Sequence record: NC_049392.1
Origin: Escherichia phage ESSI2_ev239
Strand: one strand, 5' to 3'
Length of the DNA stretch: 29,203 bases
Part shown: piece after piece, positions 16,321 through 29,203 of the stretch
How positions within the stretch are numbered: position 1 is the stretch's first letter
Layout: each line of letters opens with the position of its first letter
Notes under the pieces: model-generated
What the model was told of the DNA's origin: nothing
The model's database searches: none
The model's input: the letters and a program-made list of their open reading frames with translations, nothing else
Position numbers and translations under genes: made by a program

Positions 16321-17160
16321 TTACAGGAAATTGAAGCCTTTTTTGCCCTTGCTGAATTTCTTGTCCGGCAGTTGAGTAACTTTGTTATTCAGCTTGCTGA
16401 AGTTTTTCACCAGCTCCGGCAGGTTCCCCACCAGACGCGCAAAATCTTCGGTGTCCACTACTTCCTTCACGGTGTCCACATCGTCCTGCACATCAGATAC
16501 CGCTTCTTCCGCCTCACCCAGACGGGTTTCAATAGCAGATACGCGCTTATCAATGGCATCCAGCGCTTCAGCCAGCGCCTGTAAGGCATCAGACTGTGAA
16601 GGTTCCTGCTCCGGGGTCTGCTCCGGTTCTTCGATACTGAAAAAATGGCGCCAGCCCTTTTTCGCTGTCTTTGACATTCCCTTTTCCTTTTTAAATTCCC
16701 TGACTTCATCAAACGCCAGCGGCTTGTATGGTCCGATGCGTTTTCCCCTGGTGCGGCTGAAACGTAGCCGTGTGGTGCTTACCCCGGCCGGACTGTCAGT
16801 AATGGCCAGCCCCTCAAGATAGGTTTTCCCGGTATTTCTGAAATTCCCGTCCGGTGTAAACTCCGGTGATAAAAATAAAAGCTGCCCCTTCGCATTCGCC
16901 TGAAGCAACGCTATAGCCGGACAGAGTCGGGCGTATAAACGAAGAATACCTTCATCATCCCGCTCGGCTTTTACTTCCAGCACTTCCCCCATATTCCCGA
17001 AATTGCGGGTATGTTCCGGCCATAACAGCGCGGTATATAAATTGGGGTCATATAATTCAGCGGCATCAAGTAACCATTGTTCTTCAATGGTTCTTTTATC
17101 GACCGTTTCACCCGCAGTGGCGATACAAATCCAGTTTGTTGCCAGTTGTGAACCTGACAT
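16321..17160 (-). CDS. O: Capsid scaffolding protein (P2 gpO family)
   Basis: Track ORF extends to 17250; preferred start is Met 31 (MSGSQLATNW) preceded by GGAGG, giving about 279 aa. Acidic coiled-coil C-terminus typical of gpO. Confidence 0.8.
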   Translation of the reverse strand: MSGSQLATNWICIATAGETVDKRTIEEQWLLDAAELYDPNLYTALLWPEHTRNFGNMGEVLEVKAERDDEGILRLYARLCPAIALLQANAKGQLLFLSPEFTPDGNFRNTGKTYLEGLAITDSPAGVSTTRLRFSRTRGKRIGPYKPLAFDEVREFKKEKGMSKTAKKGWRHFFSIEEPEQTPEQEPSQSDALQALAEALDAIDKRVSAIETRLGEAEEAVSDVQDDVDTVKEVVDTEDFARLVGNLPELVKNFSKLNNKVTQLPDKKFSKGKKGFNFL

Positions 17161-17330
17161 ATTGCCTCCGTTCATTCTGCGAGGCTCAGTATCACCAATA
17201 AAATACACCCACGCATTCCAATTATTTCGGTGAAATTCGGATATAAGCAATAACCGAACTCAGCAGAATTAATTTTCAAAAATCGCGGCTGAATTGCTGA
17301 ATAATTCGCTTATTAATAAACAGATGAATT

Positions 17331-19133
17331 ATGGCAAGGAAGCCAATGGCAAAATACAGTGAAGAACTAAAAGGAGTGGCAAGGGCGCTATACCTGAAGC
17401 GCTATACACCGCAGGAAATTGCCAGCGAACTTAACTTACCCAACCGGCGAATTGTTTATTACTGGGCGGAGAAATATTGCTGGGCGGAACTGCTCAGTCA
17501 TGAATCCACGGAAGACGCGCTGAATCGCCGCGTGCAGTCGCTGACGCTGCGAGAGGGAAAATCAGAGCTGGAGCTACGCGAGCTGGACAGCCTCGTAGCC
17601 CATCTGGTGAAACTCCGTGCGCAGCATAATAAGCATCAGGAAAAGCTGGCCGAAATTAAACACCGTGGCGGCGAAGATGGAGCTGCACCGCGCCAGTCTG
17701 GTGATGGGGATAAATCGGGTAAACGCGGAAAATACAAAAAGAACGATATCAGCAAACTTACTCAGGAGGATTTTGACGCATTCGCCGCAGAGCATTTCTT
17801 CGGCTATCAAAAACATCTGCGAGCCAATCTTGGCCAGCAGGTCAGAAATATACTCAAAAGCCGCCAGATTGGCGCTACCTGGTATTTTTCGATAGAAGCC
17901 TTTGAAAGTGCGGTTATGACAGGCGATCCGCAAATTTTTCTCTCTGCATCCAAAGCCCAGGCGGAAGTCTTTCGCAGCTACATCGTCAACATCGCAGAGC
18001 AGTATTTTGGCGTGGAACTCACCGGCAACCCCATCCGTCTGTCCAACGGCGCGGAGCTGCGCTTCCTGTCCACCAACAAAAATACCGCACAGTCCTATAA
18101 CGGCCATCTGTACTGTGATGAATATTTCTGGGTTCCGAACTTCGCCAAACTGAATGAAGTGGCCAGCGCAATGGCCACGATTGATAAATGGCGCACCACC
18201 TACTTTTCCACGCCAAGCAGCAAGACCCACCAGGCGTACCCGTTCTGGACAGGCGAGGAATGGAAGCGCGGCGACAAAAAGCGCGCACGAACAGTATTCC
18301 CGACCGATAAAGAGCTGCGCGACGGTGGGCGGCTTTGTCCTGACGGCCAGTGGCGTTACATCATTACGATGGAAGACGCTATCGCCGGTGGCTTTAACCT
18401 GGCCAGCATCGAGAAGCTACGCAACCGCTACAACCGCGACACGTTCAACATGCTCTATATGTGCATATTCGTGGACAGTAAAGACAGCGTATTTTCGTTC
18501 TCCCGCGTCGAAAAATGCTGTGTCGATCCGGATACGTGGGAAGACCATGACGAAGACCTTCCCCGCCCGTTCGGTAACAGAGAGGTATGGGCGGGCTATG
18601 ACCCCGCCCGCAGCGGCGATACGTCCACCTTTGTGATTATCGCGCCGCCGATACTGGCCGTCGAAAAGTTTCGCGTGCTGCGCGTTTTCCACTGGCAGGG
18701 GATGAACTGGAAATGGCAGGCGGCACAGATTAAGAAGCTGTTTGGCCAGTACAACATGACCTACATCGGTATTGATATCACCGGGCTGGGAAGCGGTGTC
18801 TTTGAAGACGTTCAGCACTTTGCCATGCGCCAGGCAGTCGCGATCCGCTACGGCGTCGAGACCAAAAATCGTCTGGTGATGAAGATGATTGACGTAATCG
18901 AAGACGGCCGCGTGGAATGGGATAAGGAGAAGACCGAAATCGCCGCCAGCTTTATGACCATCCGGCGCACGTCCACGGCCAGCGGCAACGCGATGACGTT
19001 CGTCGCCGACCGCACAGCAGAAACAGGCCACGCAGACAGTTTCTGGGCTATCGCCCACGCTATCGACAATGAACCACTCAATTACGGAAACCAGCGTAAA
19101 TCCCGCTGGGGAAACTTAGGGAAAGCAGCATGA
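17331..19133 (+). CDS. P: Terminase large (ATPase) subunit (P2 gpP family)
   Basis: 600 aa, divergent from O across a ~170 bp AT-rich intergenic region, as P and O are arranged in P2; followed by the portal gene with overlapping stop/start. Confidence 0.85.
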   Translation: MARKPMAKYSEELKGVARALYLKRYTPQEIASELNLPNRRIVYYWAEKYCWAELLSHESTEDALNRRVQSLTLREGKSELELRELDSLVAHLVKLRAQHNKHQEKLAEIKHRGGEDGAAPRQSGDGDKSGKRGKYKKNDISKLTQEDFDAFAAEHFFGYQKHLRANLGQQVRNILKSRQIGATWYFSIEAFESAVMTGDPQIFLSASKAQAEVFRSYIVNIAEQYFGVELTGNPIRLSNGAELRFLSTNKNTAQSYNGHLYCDEYFWVPNFAKLNEVASAMATIDKWRTTYFSTPSSKTHQAYPFWTGEEWKRGDKKRARTVFPTDKELRDGGRLCPDGQWRYIITMEDAIAGGFNLASIEKLRNRYNRDTFNMLYMCIFVDSKDSVFSFSRVEKCCVDPDTWEDHDEDLPRPFGNREVWAGYDPARSGDTSTFVIIAPPILAVEKFRVLRVFHWQGMNWKWQAAQIKKLFGQYNMTYIGIDITGLGSGVFEDVQHFAMRQAVAIRYGVETKNRLVMKMIDVIEDGRVEWDKEKTEIAASFMTIRRTSTASGNAMTFVADRTAETGHADSFWAIAHAIDNEPLNYGNQRKSRWGNLGKAA

Positions 19134-20149
19134 AGAAACGCAAATTCCGGGAGCGCCGCAGCGCCCCAAAACCGCGTCATATGAGCCTTATCAGCCTGGG
19201 TAAGCCTGAACCCATTCTGACCACCGGCACAAACTATACCGATGTGTGGTACGACAACGAGGCAGAGCACTGGACGCTGCCGATTGACCGGCTGGCACTG
19301 GCGCAACTGGTGAACCTCAATGCACAGCACGGCGGCGTGCTGTATGCCCGTCGCAATATGGTGTCGGCAAACTATGAAAATGGCGGGCTTACGCATGAAC
19401 AGCTGGGGGCGGCAGTATTCGACTGGCTAACGTTCGGTGATGTGGCCATTCTGAAGGTGCGCAATGGATGGGGGGATGTGGTGGCGCTGTATCCGCTGCC
19501 GGCGCTGTACACCCGGCAGCGCAAAACCGGAGAATTCGTCGTGCTGCAACAGGCTGAACCAATGATTTACCCCCCTGAAGATATCATCTTCCTGAAGCAG
19601 TACGACCCGCAGCAGGCGGTTTATGGCCTCCCGGACTACATCAGCGGCATTCATTCCGCACTGCTGAACGGTGAGGCAACTATCTTCCGCCGCCGTTACT
19701 ACCACAACGGCGCTCACACCGGGGGCATTATCTATTCCAATGACCCGAACATGACCGACGAAGTGGAAGAAGAGATTATCAGCAAGCTGGAACAGTCGAA
19801 GGGGATCGGGAATTTCAGCACCATGTTCGTGAATATTCCCAAAGGCGATCCGGACGGCATCAAATTTATTCCGATTGGCGATATCAGCGCCAAAGATGAG
19901 TTTCAGAACATCAAGAGCATCAGCGCCCAGGACGTTCTGACCGCGCACCGCTTTCCGGCCGGACTGGCGGGGATTATCCCGACGAACGGCGCAGTAATGG
20001 GAGATATTGAGAAAGCGGCTAAAACCTACCGTAAAGCTGAAATTTTACCCGTTCAGCGTATGTTTGCGGCAGCGATTGCTGGCCAGAGCGATATTCCACA
20101 GCATTTGTACCTGAATTTCCTGAAAGACAGCGAGCTGGAAGGTGATTAA
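19130..20149 (+). CDS. Q: Portal protein (P2 gpQ family)
   Basis: 339 aa; overlaps the terminase stop by 4 nt; P-then-Q order as in the P2 PQ operon. Confidence 0.85.
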   Translation: MKKRKFRERRSAPKPRHMSLISLGKPEPILTTGTNYTDVWYDNEAEHWTLPIDRLALAQLVNLNAQHGGVLYARRNMVSANYENGGLTHEQLGAAVFDWLTFGDVAILKVRNGWGDVVALYPLPALYTRQRKTGEFVVLQQAEPMIYPPEDIIFLKQYDPQQAVYGLPDYISGIHSALLNGEATIFRRRYYHNGAHTGGIIYSNDPNMTDEVEEEIISKLEQSKGIGNFSTMFVNIPKGDPDGIKFIPIGDISAKDEFQNIKSISAQDVLTAHRFPAGLAGIIPTNGAVMGDIEKAAKTYRKAEILPVQRMFAAAIAGQSDIPQHLYLNFLKDSELEGD

Positions 20150-20202
20150 TGCCACTAAAAAGGCTAAAATATAGGCGTTTTCAGGGCCATGGAGCGCGGA
20201 AT

Positions 20203-20472
20203 ATGCGGGTACTAAAAGTAAAATGTCCGGAGTGCGGGGCAAAAGCGATCATCAAAAAGACGAATCCCAAGCACCCCCATATTTCAGATATTTACTGCGC
20301 CTGTTCTGACGTGGAATGCGGTCATACCTTCGTGCTTAACCTGACGTTCTCCCACACATTAAGCCCCAGTGCCAAGACCGGGGACTTGATGGTGCAGACG
20401 ATCCTCAATTCCTTCTCGCCAGAACAGAAGCAAATGACGCTGGATTTATTGAAAGCCGGAATGGCTGCATAG
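20203..20472 (+). CDS. ogr: Ogr/Delta-family zinc-finger late transcription activator
   Basis: Track ORF starts at 20149; preferred start is MRVLKVK, preceded by GGAG. Cysteine spacing C-x2-C-x22-C-x4-C (CPEC ... CSDVEC) matches the Ogr/Delta zinc finger. Confidence 0.7.
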   Translation: MRVLKVKCPECGAKAIIKKTNPKHPHISDIYCACSDVECGHTFVLNLTFSHTLSPSAKTGDLMVQTILNSFSPEQKQMTLDLLKAGMAA

Positions 20473-20475
20473 AAA

Positions 20476-20495
20476 AAGGCACCGTAAGGTGCCTT
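20476..20495. terminator. Bidirectional intrinsic terminator between convergent ogr and early operon
   Basis: Perfect hairpin aaggcacc-gtaa-ggtgcctt flanked by A/T runs on both sides, between the ogr stop (20472) and the stop of the minus-strand gene (20500). Confidence 0.55.
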
Positions 20496-20499
20496 ACTT

Positions 20500-20751
20500 T
20501 TACGCGCTTGCCTCAGTCTTGATAAAGGCAATGCCATCTTTAAGGAATGCGTGATAGTTTCTCCCACTCAAAGGGGAGTGAACCACAGCAGTAAGCGGCA
20601 ACAAAACATCAACAACGTTAGCAAATTGCTCAAAACTGATATCGAAGTGCTCCATTGTCAGTTCATCAAAATCAGTCGTTTCATATAGTTCATCGCTGAT
20701 ATTAAAAATTCCCATCAGCAATTCCTCATACGAAAAATAATTTTGCTTCAT
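20500..20751 (-). CDS. Small acidic hypothetical protein (candidate accessory, anti-defence or exclusion factor)
   Basis: 83 aa, rich in D/E/F; last gene of the early operon, in a region visibly AT-richer than the structural genes. Confidence 0.5.
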   Translation of the reverse strand: MKQNYFSYEELLMGIFNISDELYETTDFDELTMEHFDISFEQFANVVDVLLPLTAVVHSPLSGRNYHAFLKDGIAFIKTEASA

Positions 20752-20773
20752 TTATTCGCCCTATAATTATTCG

Positions 20774-21145
20774 CTAATCAATAATCTTAATGGTCATATC
20801 ATCCGAATCAAAAACGCCGGACACATCAACCCCTGTAATTTTGATTCCCTCAGAACCGTCCATTGGAGGCCATCCCTCCTGCCCGTTACCTTCTTTCCAG
20901 TCAAATTCACATACAACACCATATGTATTAAAGTTATTCTCAAGTGCAATGAGCATCGCATGTTGTGCCAGCATAATTAAGACGGCATTAAGTACAGATT
21001 CATGCTTCATGAGACGATATTTAGCTTCCGACCAGAAATTGTTAATTTCATGTAATTTTTCTTCTGTCATTACATCGTGGTCAATTTCAATATCAATCTC
21101 CGCTTTCCAGTCATAATCCACGGTATATCTTTTGACATTTGTCAT
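20774..21145 (-). CDS. Acidic hypothetical protein (candidate accessory, anti-defence or exclusion factor)
   Basis: Track ORF 20774-21238; preferred start is MTNVKRYT, preceded by AAGGGG at 6-7 nt, about 10 nt after the primase-helicase stop. Roughly 123 aa, acidic, no domain I can name. Confidence 0.5.
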   Translation of the reverse strand: MTNVKRYTVDYDWKAEIDIEIDHDVMTEEKLHEINNFWSEAKYRLMKHESVLNAVLIMLAQHAMLIALENNFNTYGVVCEFDWKEGNGQEGWPPMDGSEGIKITGVDVSGVFDSDDMTIKIID

Positions 21146-21155
21146 TATTTTCCCC

Positions 21156-23882
21156 TTATTTTTCCCTACGGAATATCCAGCAACGGAATGTATCCGGCAT
21201 GCGTTGCATTTCACCTTTGCCACGGTTATGGCGTTCACTCACTGCGCTGCGCGTGGTTTTGGTGTCGATAAAACGGCGCTCGTTGCCGTTTTTAAGCAGC
21301 TTTTTAATCTCGGTTAAAGTAAACGGAATACGCTGCCGGTGGGCGGCGGCGACTTCTTCCAGATGGTTAAAATTGACCGCTATTTCACCTTCATCCGATG
21401 AATGGTTAATACCATGCGGTGCCAGCTCGTCGAGGTAGTCAAACAGCTCCCAAAACTCCTGCACCAGAGGGTGATCCTTTTTAAGCGCCTGACACCGTTC
21501 CACGGCCAGCGCGGTGATGGCCTCGCGGGTCTTCTCAATACGCTCCACCGGCACCGGCACAACCAACGCCAGCGCTTCCAGCAAACCGACCAGTTGCGCA
21601 TGGTTTTTGGCGATACGGATATGGCGGATATTGGTATTAGACTCCAGCTCGCCACGGGCGCGTTCGTAGCCCTGGCCAAACACCTTCATGATTTCTTTTT
21701 CACGCATAGTGGCCAGCAGGGTGAAACCAGATACCTGGCTGACTGGGATCTGCTCAAGGCGTTCAGCGGCATAGCGGGTCTGAATAGACTGGCCACGCTT
21801 GTCGGTATAGATGTGGATGATACGCTCCAGAAACGCCTTACTGCCGTCTGTGTCGGCGTTCTGCGCTATCACTATGCTGCCCCTGAATGGCGGCTCGTAG
21901 GTCTCGTTATTGTTCGATTTGATACCCACAGCGCGGGAGGCGCGACCGTTATACAGTGATTTCAGCTCGTCCCAGTCAAAAGCGCGTTGTTTAGCGTTAT
22001 CGGTAGTACGGTCGCCCTCAATCAGCACAACCGGCAAATTACCGACCTGCGCAAAGTTACGGCCACGCGCTGCGGCTGTCGATTTGGAAGGATCAAACCC
22101 TTCATACTCTTCACGGCCGGCGAGTTTCCACAGAAATTCAATCAGCGTGGATTTACCTGTTCCCGGTTCCCCCACGATTTCAAGAAACGGGAAAGACTTG
22201 TCACGCTCGCGGATTTGCTCAGCAAACAGCGACCCCAGCCAGAACGCCAGAGCCACATACCCTTTTTCACCAAAAGCCGTCCAGATATCGTCTACCCAGC
22301 CCGTAGTAAATTCGTTCAGCTTCGGATTCAGATCCAGCGACGGCGTGAGGCTCAGGCTCTTGACGCTGGCGCTGTTGATTTCGAAATAATCTTCATCGTT
22401 CATTTCGTACAGCCGGCCATCACAAACAGCCACGCGATTAAACAGCCATGCAGCATAATCCTTGTTATAGCCAATGAAATTTTGCGTCTTAACCTCTTTG
22501 ATTTCAGGGAGGCGCATCTGGATGAACTTATCCAGCTGTTTGGTACTGCCGGTGTACACCGCACCTTTGGCGATATGCAGCAGACGTTTTTTAAACTCGG
22601 CGGAACTGGTTAACTGGTTGGCCGTGAAAGTATCTTTCACGGCTGGCCGGTTCGGCATATTGACCTTCACGTAATACCAGGACTCGTCTGTAGGTTCAGA
22701 CCGCTGGAAGTAAAGCGGCGTCAGCCAGCAGTTGGCGATTTCAGTCACGCCACCTGACTCTTTAACCGCCCGTTCTTTGGCCTCCCACTCCATCACCACT
22801 TCAGTACCGGTATTGGTGATGCGCTCATAAGCTCGCATGTACCTGTCCAGATCCAGCTCAAACCAGTACATGCGGGAGTTATGCTCAAAATAGAACGAAT
22901 GCCACTCGTTATGCTGATGCATGAGCAACGCTTTTTCAGTCGGGCTTTTCGCCAGAAGGATATCGCCATAGTAGCGATAATTTTTGATGTCCGATTTGCT
23001 GAACCGCCCACGTAAAAGCAGGTCATTCCAGTCCAGACTGGAGGATGATTTCACCGGCTGCGCCGCGCGAACTTTCCAGCCGGCTTCCTCGCTACGGGCA
23101 GCAAAGGCCAGCGTGTGCTTAGTGCCAGCTCTGTCACCATCAAACGCCCATATCAGGCGTGGGCGGGGTTTCTCGCCCAGCTCTTTAGCCAGGGTATCCA
23201 GCGCCACCAGTGGGTAATTATTGCTGCTCAGTGTGGCCACAGCGGGTAAACCCGCCTGGCACAGGCTCAGCGCGTTGAAGATGCCCTCAGTGATCCAGAT
23301 TTCATTCACTTCCAGCAGGTTCACAGACGGCGGAACCCACCAGTGGCCAACGTAGCTGCCTCTGATGTTCGCTTTCTGCTTACCAAAGCGCTGCGGCTGG
23401 TCAATGATGCGCTCCCATGTCGCACCGCAGGTCAGCTTAAATCTGACGGTTGCCGACCCCATACCATCTTTGGCAAACGCCCCCTGGGTAAAGCAACCTT
23501 TCAGCGGTTCAGTATCCAGCCCTCTCGCCTCGCGCAGATACGCCTCAGCTACCGCATGAGGGTTATCTTCTGTGGCCTGGTACCGTTTTGACCAGTCTTC
23601 AAAAATATCCGGATACAGCTCTTTGACAACGACCTGATGGCCGCAGTTGTTTTCGCGGCCGCACTTCAGGATCCAGGGCTTTTCTATGCTGGTAAATAAT
23701 TCACGTTTGTGGCATTTAGGGCAAACGCCCTGTTGCAGATATTTATCCCGTTCCTTGAATTCAAAATCCTGAACGAGTCGGCACACAACGTCCTGCTGTA
23801 TTGTGGCATTCATAATTAATCCAGATGTAGAAAGGTGTGAAAGGCAAAAACTATATTCGGTATTGTTTGTTATATCGCTCAT
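21156..23882 (-). CDS. Replication primase-helicase (zinc-finger + Toprim primase + P-loop NTPase; P4 alpha-like architecture)
   Basis: 908 aa with CPKCH...CGRENNCGH zinc motif, Toprim-like EGIFNA and AFDGDRAG, and Walker A GEPGTGKS. Start may be the internal MNATIQ (about 23813). Confidence 0.75.
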   Translation of the reverse strand: MSDITNNTEYSFCLSHLSTSGLIMNATIQQDVVCRLVQDFEFKERDKYLQQGVCPKCHKRELFTSIEKPWILKCGRENNCGHQVVVKELYPDIFEDWSKRYQATEDNPHAVAEAYLREARGLDTEPLKGCFTQGAFAKDGMGSATVRFKLTCGATWERIIDQPQRFGKQKANIRGSYVGHWWVPPSVNLLEVNEIWITEGIFNALSLCQAGLPAVATLSSNNYPLVALDTLAKELGEKPRPRLIWAFDGDRAGTKHTLAFAARSEEAGWKVRAAQPVKSSSSLDWNDLLLRGRFSKSDIKNYRYYGDILLAKSPTEKALLMHQHNEWHSFYFEHNSRMYWFELDLDRYMRAYERITNTGTEVVMEWEAKERAVKESGGVTEIANCWLTPLYFQRSEPTDESWYYVKVNMPNRPAVKDTFTANQLTSSAEFKKRLLHIAKGAVYTGSTKQLDKFIQMRLPEIKEVKTQNFIGYNKDYAAWLFNRVAVCDGRLYEMNDEDYFEINSASVKSLSLTPSLDLNPKLNEFTTGWVDDIWTAFGEKGYVALAFWLGSLFAEQIRERDKSFPFLEIVGEPGTGKSTLIEFLWKLAGREEYEGFDPSKSTAAARGRNFAQVGNLPVVLIEGDRTTDNAKQRAFDWDELKSLYNGRASRAVGIKSNNNETYEPPFRGSIVIAQNADTDGSKAFLERIIHIYTDKRGQSIQTRYAAERLEQIPVSQVSGFTLLATMREKEIMKVFGQGYERARGELESNTNIRHIRIAKNHAQLVGLLEALALVVPVPVERIEKTREAITALAVERCQALKKDHPLVQEFWELFDYLDELAPHGINHSSDEGEIAVNFNHLEEVAAAHRQRIPFTLTEIKKLLKNGNERRFIDTKTTRSAVSERHNRGKGEMQRMPDTFRCWIFRREK

Positions 23883-24069
23883 GCGTCATTAATTCCCAAT
23901 GTCTGCCCTTATCTTTACTCAGTAACCGCCAGCGATAAGAGACATGTACAGACAAATAATGATGCGGTTTTATAACCTGATATACTTTTTTGCCGCTGTA
24001 ATATTCTGTCAGCACTGATAATGCCTTGTGAATGACACTTTCACTCGCATGAGAGGTCACTGTCAGCAT
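23851..24069 (-). CDS. Small hypothetical ORF upstream of the primase-helicase
   Basis: 72-aa ORF overlapping the annotated primase start by about 30 nt; no motif; may be spurious if the primase starts at 23882. Confidence 0.3.
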   Translation of the reverse strand: MLTVTSHASESVIHKALSVLTEYYSGKKVYQVIKPHHYLSVHVSYRWRLLSKDKGRHWELMTHERYNKQYRI

Positions 24070-25666: not shown

Positions 25667-25750
25667 AAGCTGAAAATTGGTTAGACCTGTATTTTGAATT
25701 TGCTGACTGCCTGTGGTCGCAGGCCGGAAGCTACATCGGAGGGCTTCGCT

Positions 25751-26734
25751 ATGGCGATTAAGAAGCTCGATGATGGACGTTATGAACTGGACACAAGAGC
25801 GGGCGGACGCACCAGTAAGCGGATCCGCAAAATATTTAACAGAAGGGCTGATGCTGTTGCGTATGAACGCTACATGCTGGGTAAGTTTCAGCGCAAGGAA
25901 TGGGATCCGGCAGCACAGATTGACAGGCGCACGCTGGACGATATCAGAGAATTGTGGTGGCTCTACCACGGCCAGACGCAGAAGAATGGCGAGATTGAAA
26001 ACAGGCATCTCATCAAAACCATTACCGCGCTGGATAATCCGCAGGTAGGCGAGGTTAACAAACGAATGCTGATAGTCCACCGCAGCCGCAGGCTGGCGCA
26101 GGGAATAAGCGCATCCACGGTCAACCGCGATATTTACCGGCTGTCCGGCATGTTCAGCGCACTGATCAAGCTGGATGAGTTTGAGGGGGAAAACCCGCTG
26201 CGTGGTCTGCCTCCCCTGAAAGAGAAAAATCCCGGCATGACCTTTCTCACAAAACCGGAAATTAGCCGCCTGCTGGACACGCTGACGGGCGATTACCGAC
26301 TGGTTGCCCTGCTGTGCCTCAGCACAGGCGGACGCTGGGGAGAGGTCAGTACGCTGACGGAATCGCAGATTATGCACGGCCGTGTCGTATTCCTGGAAAC
26401 GAAGAACGGCAAAAAGCGCGTGGTTCCCATCTCTTCCGAACTGGAAGACGAAATTATGGCCAACGCCAGCGCGGGGCTGTTCCGGGTGGACTATGAAAAC
26501 TTCTGCCGGAAGCTGCGGAAGGTCAAGCCAGACCTGCCACGCGGTCAGGCCACCCACATTCTGCGACACACGTTCGCCAGCCACTTTATGATGAACGGCG
26601 GGAATATCATTGCGCTTCAGCAGATACTTGGCCATGCCAGCATTCAGCAGACGATGGCGTATGCGCATCTGGCACCGGATTATCTCCAGAACGCTATCGC
26701 ACTGAATCCGCTGAAAGGGGGGCTGGGAGTCTGA
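25751..26734 (+). CDS. int: Tyrosine integrase (P2 Int-like)
   Basis: Start MAIKKLDDGRYE, preceded by GGAGGG, matches the P2 Int N-terminus; catalytic region HILRHTFASHFMMNGGNIIALQQILGH...MAYAHL carries the R-H-R-Y signature. Confidence 0.9.
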   Translation: MAIKKLDDGRYELDTRAGGRTSKRIRKIFNRRADAVAYERYMLGKFQRKEWDPAAQIDRRTLDDIRELWWLYHGQTQKNGEIENRHLIKTITALDNPQVGEVNKRMLIVHRSRRLAQGISASTVNRDIYRLSGMFSALIKLDEFEGENPLRGLPPLKEKNPGMTFLTKPEISRLLDTLTGDYRLVALLCLSTGGRWGEVSTLTESQIMHGRVVFLETKNGKKRVVPISSELEDEIMANASAGLFRVDYENFCRKLRKVKPDLPRGQATHILRHTFASHFMMNGGNIIALQQILGHASIQQTMAYAHLAPDYLQNAIALNPLKGGLGV

Positions 26735-27189: not shown

Positions 27190-28293
27190 ATGAAATATAT
27201 TTTTGAATACGGATTTTATCTCAGCATACTTATAGCGACAATATATGTCACTTCTAAGTTTTTGGGTATTACACCTGCAAAACATAAATACGCCTCACTT
27301 GATGGCTTACGTGGAATTTGTGCAGCAATGGTTGCTGTATTCCATCTTTACTGGAGAGCCGGAGGAGAATCAGATATATACTGGTCTCTTGAGTACATTA
27401 CACTCAGCAATGTAAAACGCGCCATATATCTAACAGGTGAGTTATCTGTTGGTGTATTTTTTATGCTGTCTGCTTTTTTATTTTTCAAAAAGGCACTGGC
27501 GAACTCCTTCGATGTAAAAAGTTTTGCAATTTCACGATTCATGCGAATTTACCCACCTGTAGTGGTTCTTTTATTTATAATATATATTGCAACATTTATC
27601 ATGAATCCGGATGACCATACTCCAGTATCGCAATGGTTTATACCTTCATTACCATTTATATTCAATCCACCTGGAGCTAACATCAATGGTGTATCGCTCC
27701 AGATTGCCACATCTGGTGTGTTCTGGACGTTAGTCTGGGAATTACGCCTATACCTTGCAATTCCATTTTTATATCTGATAATGAAAAACATAAAATATAA
27801 AGAAGCATTTGTTATTTTTTTAATGGGATGTATTTTGTTATTCAAGTATTTTATAAATAATGAACAATACCTGAGTTATATAATGTATTTCCTTGCCGGA
27901 TTTCTTGTCGCTACAATCAAGAGTAACAAGCGCCCATCAGATATAATCTGCGTTTTATTATTATTCGCAGCTATATATTTCACTCGACATGCTTACAACA
28001 CTACAACTCCGCTTTATATGTTTGTTATTTTCTACACAATAAAGTGCGGATGTGATTACTTTGGCTTACTTACATCCCTGCCTGTAACTATGCTGGGAAC
28101 CTGCAGTTTCTCCCTTTATTTAGTTCATGGGATAACTCAGACAGTATCTAAACATTATTTATATAGCACAGGAAACTATGTTTGGCAGATTTGTGCAATT
28201 ATTGCGGCAGGTATCATTGCGCCGGTTATGTACAAATATGTCGAAAGTCGCAGCATCATACATAAGCCTCCTCACCTTCAGATTGCAAAGTAG
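27190..28293 (+). CDS. Acyltransferase family 3 integral membrane protein (candidate O-antigen O-acetyltransferase, lysogenic-conversion moron)
   Basis: 367 aa, about 10 hydrophobic segments, N-terminal signature LDGLRGICAAMVAVFH typical of the Oac/OafA-type acyltransferase-3 family; markedly AT-rich compared with the phage backbone. Confidence 0.75.
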   Translation: MKYIFEYGFYLSILIATIYVTSKFLGITPAKHKYASLDGLRGICAAMVAVFHLYWRAGGESDIYWSLEYITLSNVKRAIYLTGELSVGVFFMLSAFLFFKKALANSFDVKSFAISRFMRIYPPVVVLLFIIYIATFIMNPDDHTPVSQWFIPSLPFIFNPPGANINGVSLQIATSGVFWTLVWELRLYLAIPFLYLIMKNIKYKEAFVIFLMGCILLFKYFINNEQYLSYIMYFLAGFLVATIKSNKRPSDIICVLLLFAAIYFTRHAYNTTTPLYMFVIFYTIKCGCDYFGLLTSLPVTMLGTCSFSLYLVHGITQTVSKHYLYSTGNYVWQICAIIAAGIIAPVMYKYVESRSIIHKPPHLQIAK

Positions 28294-29126: not shown

Positions 29127-29203
29127 CTGTCTCTTATACACATCTCCGAGCCCACGAGACTCCTGAGCATCTCGTATGCCGTCTTCTGCTTGAAAAAAAA
29201 AAA
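29127..29203. other. Sequencing adapter contamination (Nextera read-through adapter with 8-nt index, P7 tail and poly-A)
   Basis: CTGTCTCTTATACACATCTCCGAGCCCACGAGAC + TCCTGAGC + ATCTCGTATGCCGTCTTCTGCTTG + A11 is the standard Nextera i7 adapter structure; not biological sequence. Confidence 0.9.

Follow-up and report, generated by a model that had tools for sequence, protein, structure and literature searches.

An Ea10 homologue and an unrelated small acidic gene at the replication gene–portal hotspot of an ESSI-2-type prophage

Lambda Ea10 is an early phage protein whose role has, to our knowledge, gone unexplained for about 50 years. The neighbours of its gene in the lambda pL operon, Gam, Kil, CIII and Ral, are inhibitors of host factors, and among other acidic early proteins T7 Ocr and ArdA are anti-restriction DNA mimics. 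Ea10 itself is made abundantly from pL (PMC3961180), its gene is non-essential (PMC10695390) and its role has been described as "not fully understood" (bioRxiv 10.1101/2024.10.31.621285); in the literature on Ea10 and DUF2528 we found no functional characterisation. P2-like phages carry defence cargo in the hotspot between gpA and gpQ (Rousset et al. 2022, PMC9122126), and a "primase-portal" hotspot is described in a recent preprint (Moura de Sousa et al. 2026, bioRxiv 10.64898/2026.02.27.708500).

The locus presented here lies in an ESSI-2-type, P2-like (Peduoviridae) prophage and places an Ea10 homologue, gene A, and a second small acidic gene, gene B, at such a junction. It resembles the P2 gpA–gpQ hotspot in its location between replication gene and portal, in the extreme turnover of its contents among near-identical phages and in the Old, AbiL and methylase cargo of its relatives, and differs from it in that a primase-helicase replaces the gpA nickase and that ogr stands between the portal gene and the slot. 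The cargo differs as well, in that it consists of two small genes in early-operon orientation that bear no defence signature. The hotspot, the named family of gene A and the PHROG of gene B (existing, unannotated) are already known. Our best explanation, to which we assign a probability of roughly 0.6, is that A and B are hotspot cargo made up of two independent modules, placed as cistrons of the early operon and serving a host-interference role.

The prophage and the end of its early strand

The window, by which we mean the whole 29,203-nucleotide stretch of DNA that was analysed, is a prophage of the ESSI-2 type. Its terminase and portal DNA is 67–71% identical to that of Cronobacter phage ESSI-2, the Escherichia ESSI2_ev phages and Yersinia phage vB_YenM_324, and a 5.2-kb stretch spanning genes A and B is 100% identical to E. 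coli assembly GCA_032988385.1 (locus L012). The slot and its surroundings are laid out as follows.

16321–17250, minus strand: scaffold
17331–19133, plus strand: large terminase
19130–20149, plus strand: portal (P2 Q equivalent), the core gene on the far side of the hotspot (Pfam Phage_portal on the homologous gene of L012)
20149–20472, plus strand: Ogr/Delta zinc-finger late activator, the downstream slot boundary, convergent with genes A and B (Pfam Ogr_Delta 2.9e-17; phrog_603 1.6e-42)
20476–20495, minus strand: hairpin and T-run terminator, closing the predicted early operon (terminator scan)
20500–20751, minus strand: gene B, 83 aa, phrog_10957, last gene of the predicted early operon
20774–21145, minus strand: gene A, 123 aa, Ea10 homologue (DUF2528 / phrog_646)
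21156–23882, minus strand: primase-helicase, the upstream slot boundary (Pfam Toprim_3, Toprim_2 and DUF5906 ATPase; phrog_1139, 1239 bits)

The portal label is also carried, by annotation, by the gene at the equivalent position in ESSI-2-type phages. All early genes lie on one strand, on which a ParE-like ORF, an Rv2179c-like 3'-5' exonuclease, a 120-aa ORF and cox stand upstream of the primase-helicase, with repressor and integrase beyond. As called mechanically, the primase ORF has 908 aa, starts at 23882 and overlaps the ParE-like ORF; because the primases of relatives were called at 883–897 aa, the true start is probably Met24 at 23813. The ParE-like ORF encodes a toxin-domain protein of 72 aa (23851–24069, minus strand; PF24732, 8.3e-18) between the exonuclease and the primase; it stands alone, without an obvious antitoxin partner, and is kept in many relatives and uncalled in some. 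Just past the integrase (25694–26734) lies a gene for a membrane acyltransferase of 367 aa (27190–28293, plus strand; Acyl_transf_3, E 3.8e-29), which may represent a serotype-converting moron or flanking host DNA. The minus strand carries an exact Nextera mosaic-end adapter, AGATGTGTATAAGAGACAG, at 29127–29145, about 60 bases short of the right-hand window end; the last stretch of the contig is probably an adapter or assembly artefact. Rfam gave no family match anywhere in the window, and a search for a P2 cos core sequence gave no match there, a result that is uninformative.

The preliminary description of this DNA had placed two genes of these lengths on the minus strand, tightly linked behind the primase-helicase, and the ORF coordinates agree with it in full. 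The mechanical ORF of gene A extends to a GTG at 21238; every homologue starts at the ATG that yields 123 aa, which is preceded by a Shine-Dalgarno-like AAGGGG and separated by 10 nt from the primase stop codon (21156–21158), and the spacer between genes A and B is 22 nt. The acidity attributed to both products is borne out by pI values of 4.44 for A and 4.29 for B, with net charges of -14 and -10. The description of the region as AT-rich acquired cargo likewise stands, at 38–39% GC against 52–55% in the flanks (0.384 for gene A and 0.393 for gene B against 0.524 for the primase, 0.546 for the portal gene and 0.537 for terL), with GC3 of 0.38 and 0.43 against 0.58–0.66 in the neighbouring core genes. 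Comparison with several homologues gave dN/dS of 0.08–0.19 for A and B; this purifying selection marks both as real coding genes. An ORF of 108 aa runs antisense over gene A (20790–21116, plus strand), and we take it as a by-product of AT-rich sequence because it is the minus-strand frame that agrees with the protein homology, the Pfam match and the dN/dS values.

Straight after the gene B stop, the minus strand carries the terminator hairpin (20495–20476), with 8 pairs, 5 of them G-C, followed by TTTCT; the hairpin lies 3 nt past the ogr stop codon of the opposite strand, and the stretch is kept in the Citrobacter relatives (homology 20751–20464). A bidirectional terminator shared with ogr had been proposed at this position. 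The minus-strand part of that proposal is confirmed; on the plus strand, the direction of ogr, nothing but ACTTTTAC comes after the hairpin, and this failed the T-run criterion of the scan, so that "bidirectional" is weakly supported. A promoter scan confined to sigma-70 consensus sites, with weak or atypical promoters outside its reach, gave 2 promoter-like matches against 2.7 expected when an own promoter for the A/B pair was sought, and none upstream of gene A. We read A and B as the last two cistrons of a putative early lytic operon, which would run from cox through the 120-aa ORF, the 3'-5' exonuclease, the ParE-like ORF and the primase-helicase to A, B and the terminator, so that their products would be made on induction or infection and not in the lysogen.

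Two small acidic protein families

Gene A had been thought to contain no recognisable domain, which is wrong. It matches Pfam DUF2528 (PF10800) at E 7.5e-42 with 142.5 bits (cut-off 22) over profile positions 2–104 of 104, phrog_646 at 3.2e-58, and lambda Ea10, a protein of 122 aa, at 77.5% identity and 98% coverage (tblastn, E 3e-54). Matches occur in 213 phage records, most of them from lambda, 434 and Stx-converting phages; "ssb" is a frequent label for the gene in these records. At the DNA level, gene A is 75.8% identical to lambda-type ea10, and this homology is limited to the ORF (21149–20787); because it ends at the ORF borders, ea10 moved as a single-gene module. The GC content of lambda-type ea10, 38.5%, equals the 38.4% of gene A, so AT-richness is a trait of the Ea10 gene family wherever it is located. 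In an alignment of 34 sequences, gene A retains the family-invariant Y7, L31, N35, F37, R44, V55, G91 and G100 as well as the Ea10 motifs D22-H23-D24 (DHD) and E90-G91-W92-P93...D96-G97-S98 (EGWP..DGS), and, instead of a surface for passive binding, the conserved His, Asp, Trp and Gly motifs could equally mark a site of ligand binding or catalysis. Gene A and lambda ea10 thus share length, motifs, GC content and an early-operon place; they differ in that gene A follows the primase-helicase of a P2-type myovirus, whereas the lambda gene lies in the pL operon near ral and cIII.

Other members of the Ea10 family are also found in early regions. Ea10 homologues adjoin CIII in lambdoid pL-type operons, a lambda-type record has ea10 between a superinfection-exclusion gene and kil/gam, and distant members (32–34% identity) immediately precede GemA/Mor in the early accessory region of Mu-like Burkholderia and Stenotrophomonas phages. 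A role for ea10 in the lambda block of host replication initiation was considered and dropped, since that literature concerns the exo-xis region.

The database names of Ea10 homologues, which include "single-stranded DNA-binding protein", suggest a different reading, in which A and B would be replication accessories of the primase-helicase module and gene A would encode an ssDNA-binding protein. The position of both genes immediately downstream of the primase-helicase is in keeping with this, as is that of the VP882 relative of gene B, which follows a DnaQ-like exonuclease. However, no SSB family was found for gene A in Pfam at E≤1, and the AF2 model of its product (built with 34 family members; pLDDT 93.7, pTM 0.85) predicts an N-terminal beta-hairpin, four helices, a conserved Gly/Trp/Pro-rich loop and one more strand rather than a five-stranded OB barrel. 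The net charge of -14 is conserved in the Ea10 family. A Serratia lambdoid prophage (L083, 3501–5499) encodes an Ea10 homologue beside CIII, and a true SSB (PF00436) is encoded separately in the same operon, downstream of the gene for a Rad52-type recombinase, so that Ea10 is not the SSB of that phage. Furthermore, A and B are dispensable, because they are absent from at least six close relatives (primase C-terminal regions 78–87% identical) that have only 27–66 bp between primase and ogr, and because lambda ea10 is itself non-essential. We therefore regard an accessory role in replication as very unlikely, and the "SSB" label on Ea10 homologues as probably wrong.

Gene B is, by sequence comparison, a member of a phage-only family of acidic proteins of about 85 aa that is present in temperate and in large Vibrio phages. 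It matches phrog_10957 at E 3.3e-11, with residues 4–71 on profile positions 3–69 of 93, and shares 35–43% identity with small proteins of Vibrio phages VP882, MAR and VHML; with proteins of Vibrio phages of 130–142 kb the identity is 56%, across roughly half of gene B. A HMMER search of 1.8 billion cluster representatives returned 82 relatives at E≤1e-3, nearly all of 77–110 aa, and none of the 91 proteins from a profile search has a Pfam domain or a name beyond "hypothetical". The AF2 model (pLDDT 93.1) predicts four helices followed by a three-stranded sheet and compares with family members at a Foldseek TM of 0.73–0.75; a BFVD structure search gave only uncharacterised family members, and neither the gene A nor the gene B model had a convincing structural relative. 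Profile match, identity and predicted fold thus ally gene B with the phrog_10957 or VP882 gp45-like proteins, which are without name, Pfam domain or solved structure, and gene B is distinguished from them as the terminal cistron of a P2-type early operon. The relatives are found in small early or accessory gene clusters, one of them sharing its contig with genes for thymidylate synthase and dCMP deaminase and another at an operon end beside an integrase. The large Vibrio phages and the nucleotide-metabolism contig are probably virulent phages.

Searches for the region as a whole and in curated collections returned little. Megablast of the A/B region against phages gave nothing, relatives being found only by protein-level and distant searches, and at megablast sensitivity none of 5,426 complete E. 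coli genomes carries the A/B stretch, with the portal/ogr part alone matched in 18 genomes. Neither gene has a match in NCBIfam or in PADLOC-DB (no family at E≤0.1), and sequence searches of the PDB gave no match, whether with single sequences or with profiles (gene A profile searched at E≤10). Like Ocr and ArdA, the two proteins are small, strongly acidic and predicted to be early, and their acidity, measured on the sequence level, is conserved in both families (Ea10 family, median net charge -14 with 13 columns at least 80% acidic; gene B family, median net charge -10 with 11 such columns). The DNA-mimic idea is compatible with these charge data and has no structural or catalogue support.

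Turnover of the slot and independence of the two genes

Using the primase as an anchor we collected 52 IMG/VR loci and measured the interval from primase stop to ogr in about 33 close relatives (L018–L050), among which it spans 27–2130 bp and at least 12 different arrangements occur. The contents of the interval, with the loci in which they were found, are listed below.

Nothing (27–66 bp): L036, L038, L039, L042, L043, L049
55-aa membrane peptide: L024, L032, L046
ClpX-type zinc-finger protein alone: L018, L019, L021
ClpX-type zinc-finger protein and gene B: L030, Citrobacter L004–L011
91-aa CxxC protein and gene B: L022, L023, L037
Gene B alone: Klebsiella L070–L072
Ea10 (52% identity) and an unrelated 70-aa ORF: L050
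239-aa protein on the other strand: L026–L028, E. coli HZ13
282–330-aa membrane/coiled-coil protein: L029, L033–L035
DUF6232 protein: L041
DUF7415 protein and Dam methylase: L044 (type II/orphan methylase, 4.1e-100)
AbiLi and AbiLii: L045, L047, L048 (5.1e-72 and 1.1e-10)
P2 Old: L031 (PADLOC E 1.7e-215)

At the same slot, ESSI-2 has an empty gap of 317 bp and ESSI2_ev040 an unrelated 86-aa ORF. The earlier proposal that this junction is the variable slot equivalent to P2 old/tin, with differing cargo in related phages, is thus upheld by relatives that are empty or carry Old, AbiLi/AbiLii or a Dam methylase, and the slot agrees with the "primase-portal" hotspot of the 2026 preprint and is the published gpA–gpQ hotspot. 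The keyword survey behind that publication ("replication endonuclease"; PMC9122126) probably missed this lineage.

Several occupants of the slot deserve description. The ClpX-type protein found at the gene A position has 103 aa and a C-terminal C4 zinc finger (PF06689, 1.3e-10; L004 5693–6004, L030 5826–6137), and a phage-borne copy of this ClpX substrate/adaptor-binding domain is unusual. In L004 and L030 its gene and the 83-aa gene overlap by 4 bases, stop on start, an arrangement consistent with translational coupling; in L018, L019 and L021 the gene lies just downstream of the primase and stands alone. The 91-aa CxxC protein is a third occupant of the gene A position (L022 5680–5955, L023 5521–5778, L037 2551–2826), is without a Pfam or PADLOC match, and its gene likewise ends in a 4-base overlap with the start of the 83-aa gene. 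The protein of 282–330 aa (L029 5697–6686, L033, L034 5897–6745, L035) combines N-terminal membrane segments with a long coiled coil; Pfam assigns it to no family, PADLOC gives only weak LmuB-like coiled-coil matches, and it is a candidate exclusion or abortive-infection protein.

These distributions speak against the earlier view of A and B as a two-gene cassette forming an undescribed system, since each gene occurs without the other and A can be exchanged for a ClpX-type gene while B stays. Relative to the Citrobacter prophages, the window is about 85% identical through the primase to its stop at 21156, shows no homology over gene A, and returns to 86% identity exactly at the start codon of gene B (20751), from where homology continues through the terminator; because the homology breaks at 21156 and 20751, gene A constitutes a single-gene swap. 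Gene B is found without A in Citrobacter after the ClpX-type gene, in Klebsiella alone, in L022, L023 and L037 after the CxxC gene, and in other contexts, and Ea10 without gene B in lambdoid phages, Mu-like phages and L050. A comparison of the A and B profiles by hhalign found no relationship. On these sequence comparisons, A and B are two unrelated, independently mobile single-gene modules and not a two-component system. An obligate pair that is active only together, such as a toxin and antitoxin or an effector with its regulator, would account for the tight spacing of the two genes and for the recurrence of the A+B arrangement in E. coli, Enterobacter and Citrobacter prophages. That recurrence, however, is confined to one prophage lineage, in which gene A is 85–100% identical, and is explained by descent; each gene occurs many times without the other and with varied partners, and an Enterobacter locus with an intact A has a shorter call, of 71 aa, for B. 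We consider an obligate pair the least probable of the readings discussed here.

Given the cargo of its relatives, the slot also invites a reading in which A or B would be prophage-encoded defence or superinfection exclusion, protecting the lysogen in the manner of P2 tin and old. The presence of Old and AbiLi/AbiLii at the same junction in close relatives, the published standing of gpA–gpQ as a defence hotspot (PMC9122126) and an AT-richness typical of such cargo would all suit this reading. Yet neither A nor B matches PADLOC, both are closely tied into the early lytic operon and show no promoter signal above chance, and Ea10 homologues are among the early-region genes of lambdoid and Mu-like phages. 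Protection of a lysogen would, moreover, make little sense in the seemingly virulent phages that carry members of the gene B family, namely the 130–142 kb Vibrio phages and the nucleotide-metabolism contig. A defence role for A or B is thus unlikely in our judgement.

A proposed early role and its implications

Several lines point to the products of A and B being made during lytic development and not in the lysogen: the coupling of both genes to the early operon, the lack of a promoter signal above chance, the early-region contexts of Ea10 and the phage contexts of the relatives of gene B. In the favoured reading of independent host-interference modules, each protein would be a dispensable, stoichiometric early factor acting in host takeover or counter-defence, and each would act by binding a protein of the host or of a defence system, by way of a conserved acidic surface, in the manner of the proteins encoded beside ea10 in the lambda pL operon. 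We infer interference instead of defence, and the functional part taken by itself, that A and B are independent early binders with a host-interference or counter-defence role, has in our estimate slightly less than an even chance of being right.

A more specific proposal would treat the primase-side part of the hotspot as a counter-defence sub-slot that swaps small genes in early-operon orientation, namely Ea10, the ClpX-type zinc-finger protein, the 91-aa CxxC protein and the 83-aa family. This would make new anti-defence or host-factor inhibitors of Ea10 and the 83-aa family. One version of this proposal would see in Ea10 a soluble SPFH-like domain, possibly a mimic of HflK/C, that interferes with the HflK/C–FtsH axis; its context is that ea10 in lambda adjoins cIII, which encodes an inhibitor of that axis. 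We offer the sub-slot proposal as a speculative one that is doubtful in its present form.

In summary, this work adds to the known hotspot and the known protein families the placement of an Ea10 module in the P2-type defence hotspot by this lineage, a small-gene sub-slot next to the primase that exchanges Ea10, zinc-finger and CxxC genes, and evidence against the widespread "SSB" annotation of the Ea10 family. The published gpA–portal hotspot is thereby extended to the primase-helicase lineage of Peduoviridae, where the slot is shared by true defence systems and small genes of the early operon. Because ea10 moved as a single-ORF module into a P2-type hotspot, lambdoid, Mu-like and P2-like phages have Ea10/DUF2528 in common in their early regions. 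Should Ea10 or the 83-aa family prove to be counter-defence factors, an old question of lambda biology would be answered.
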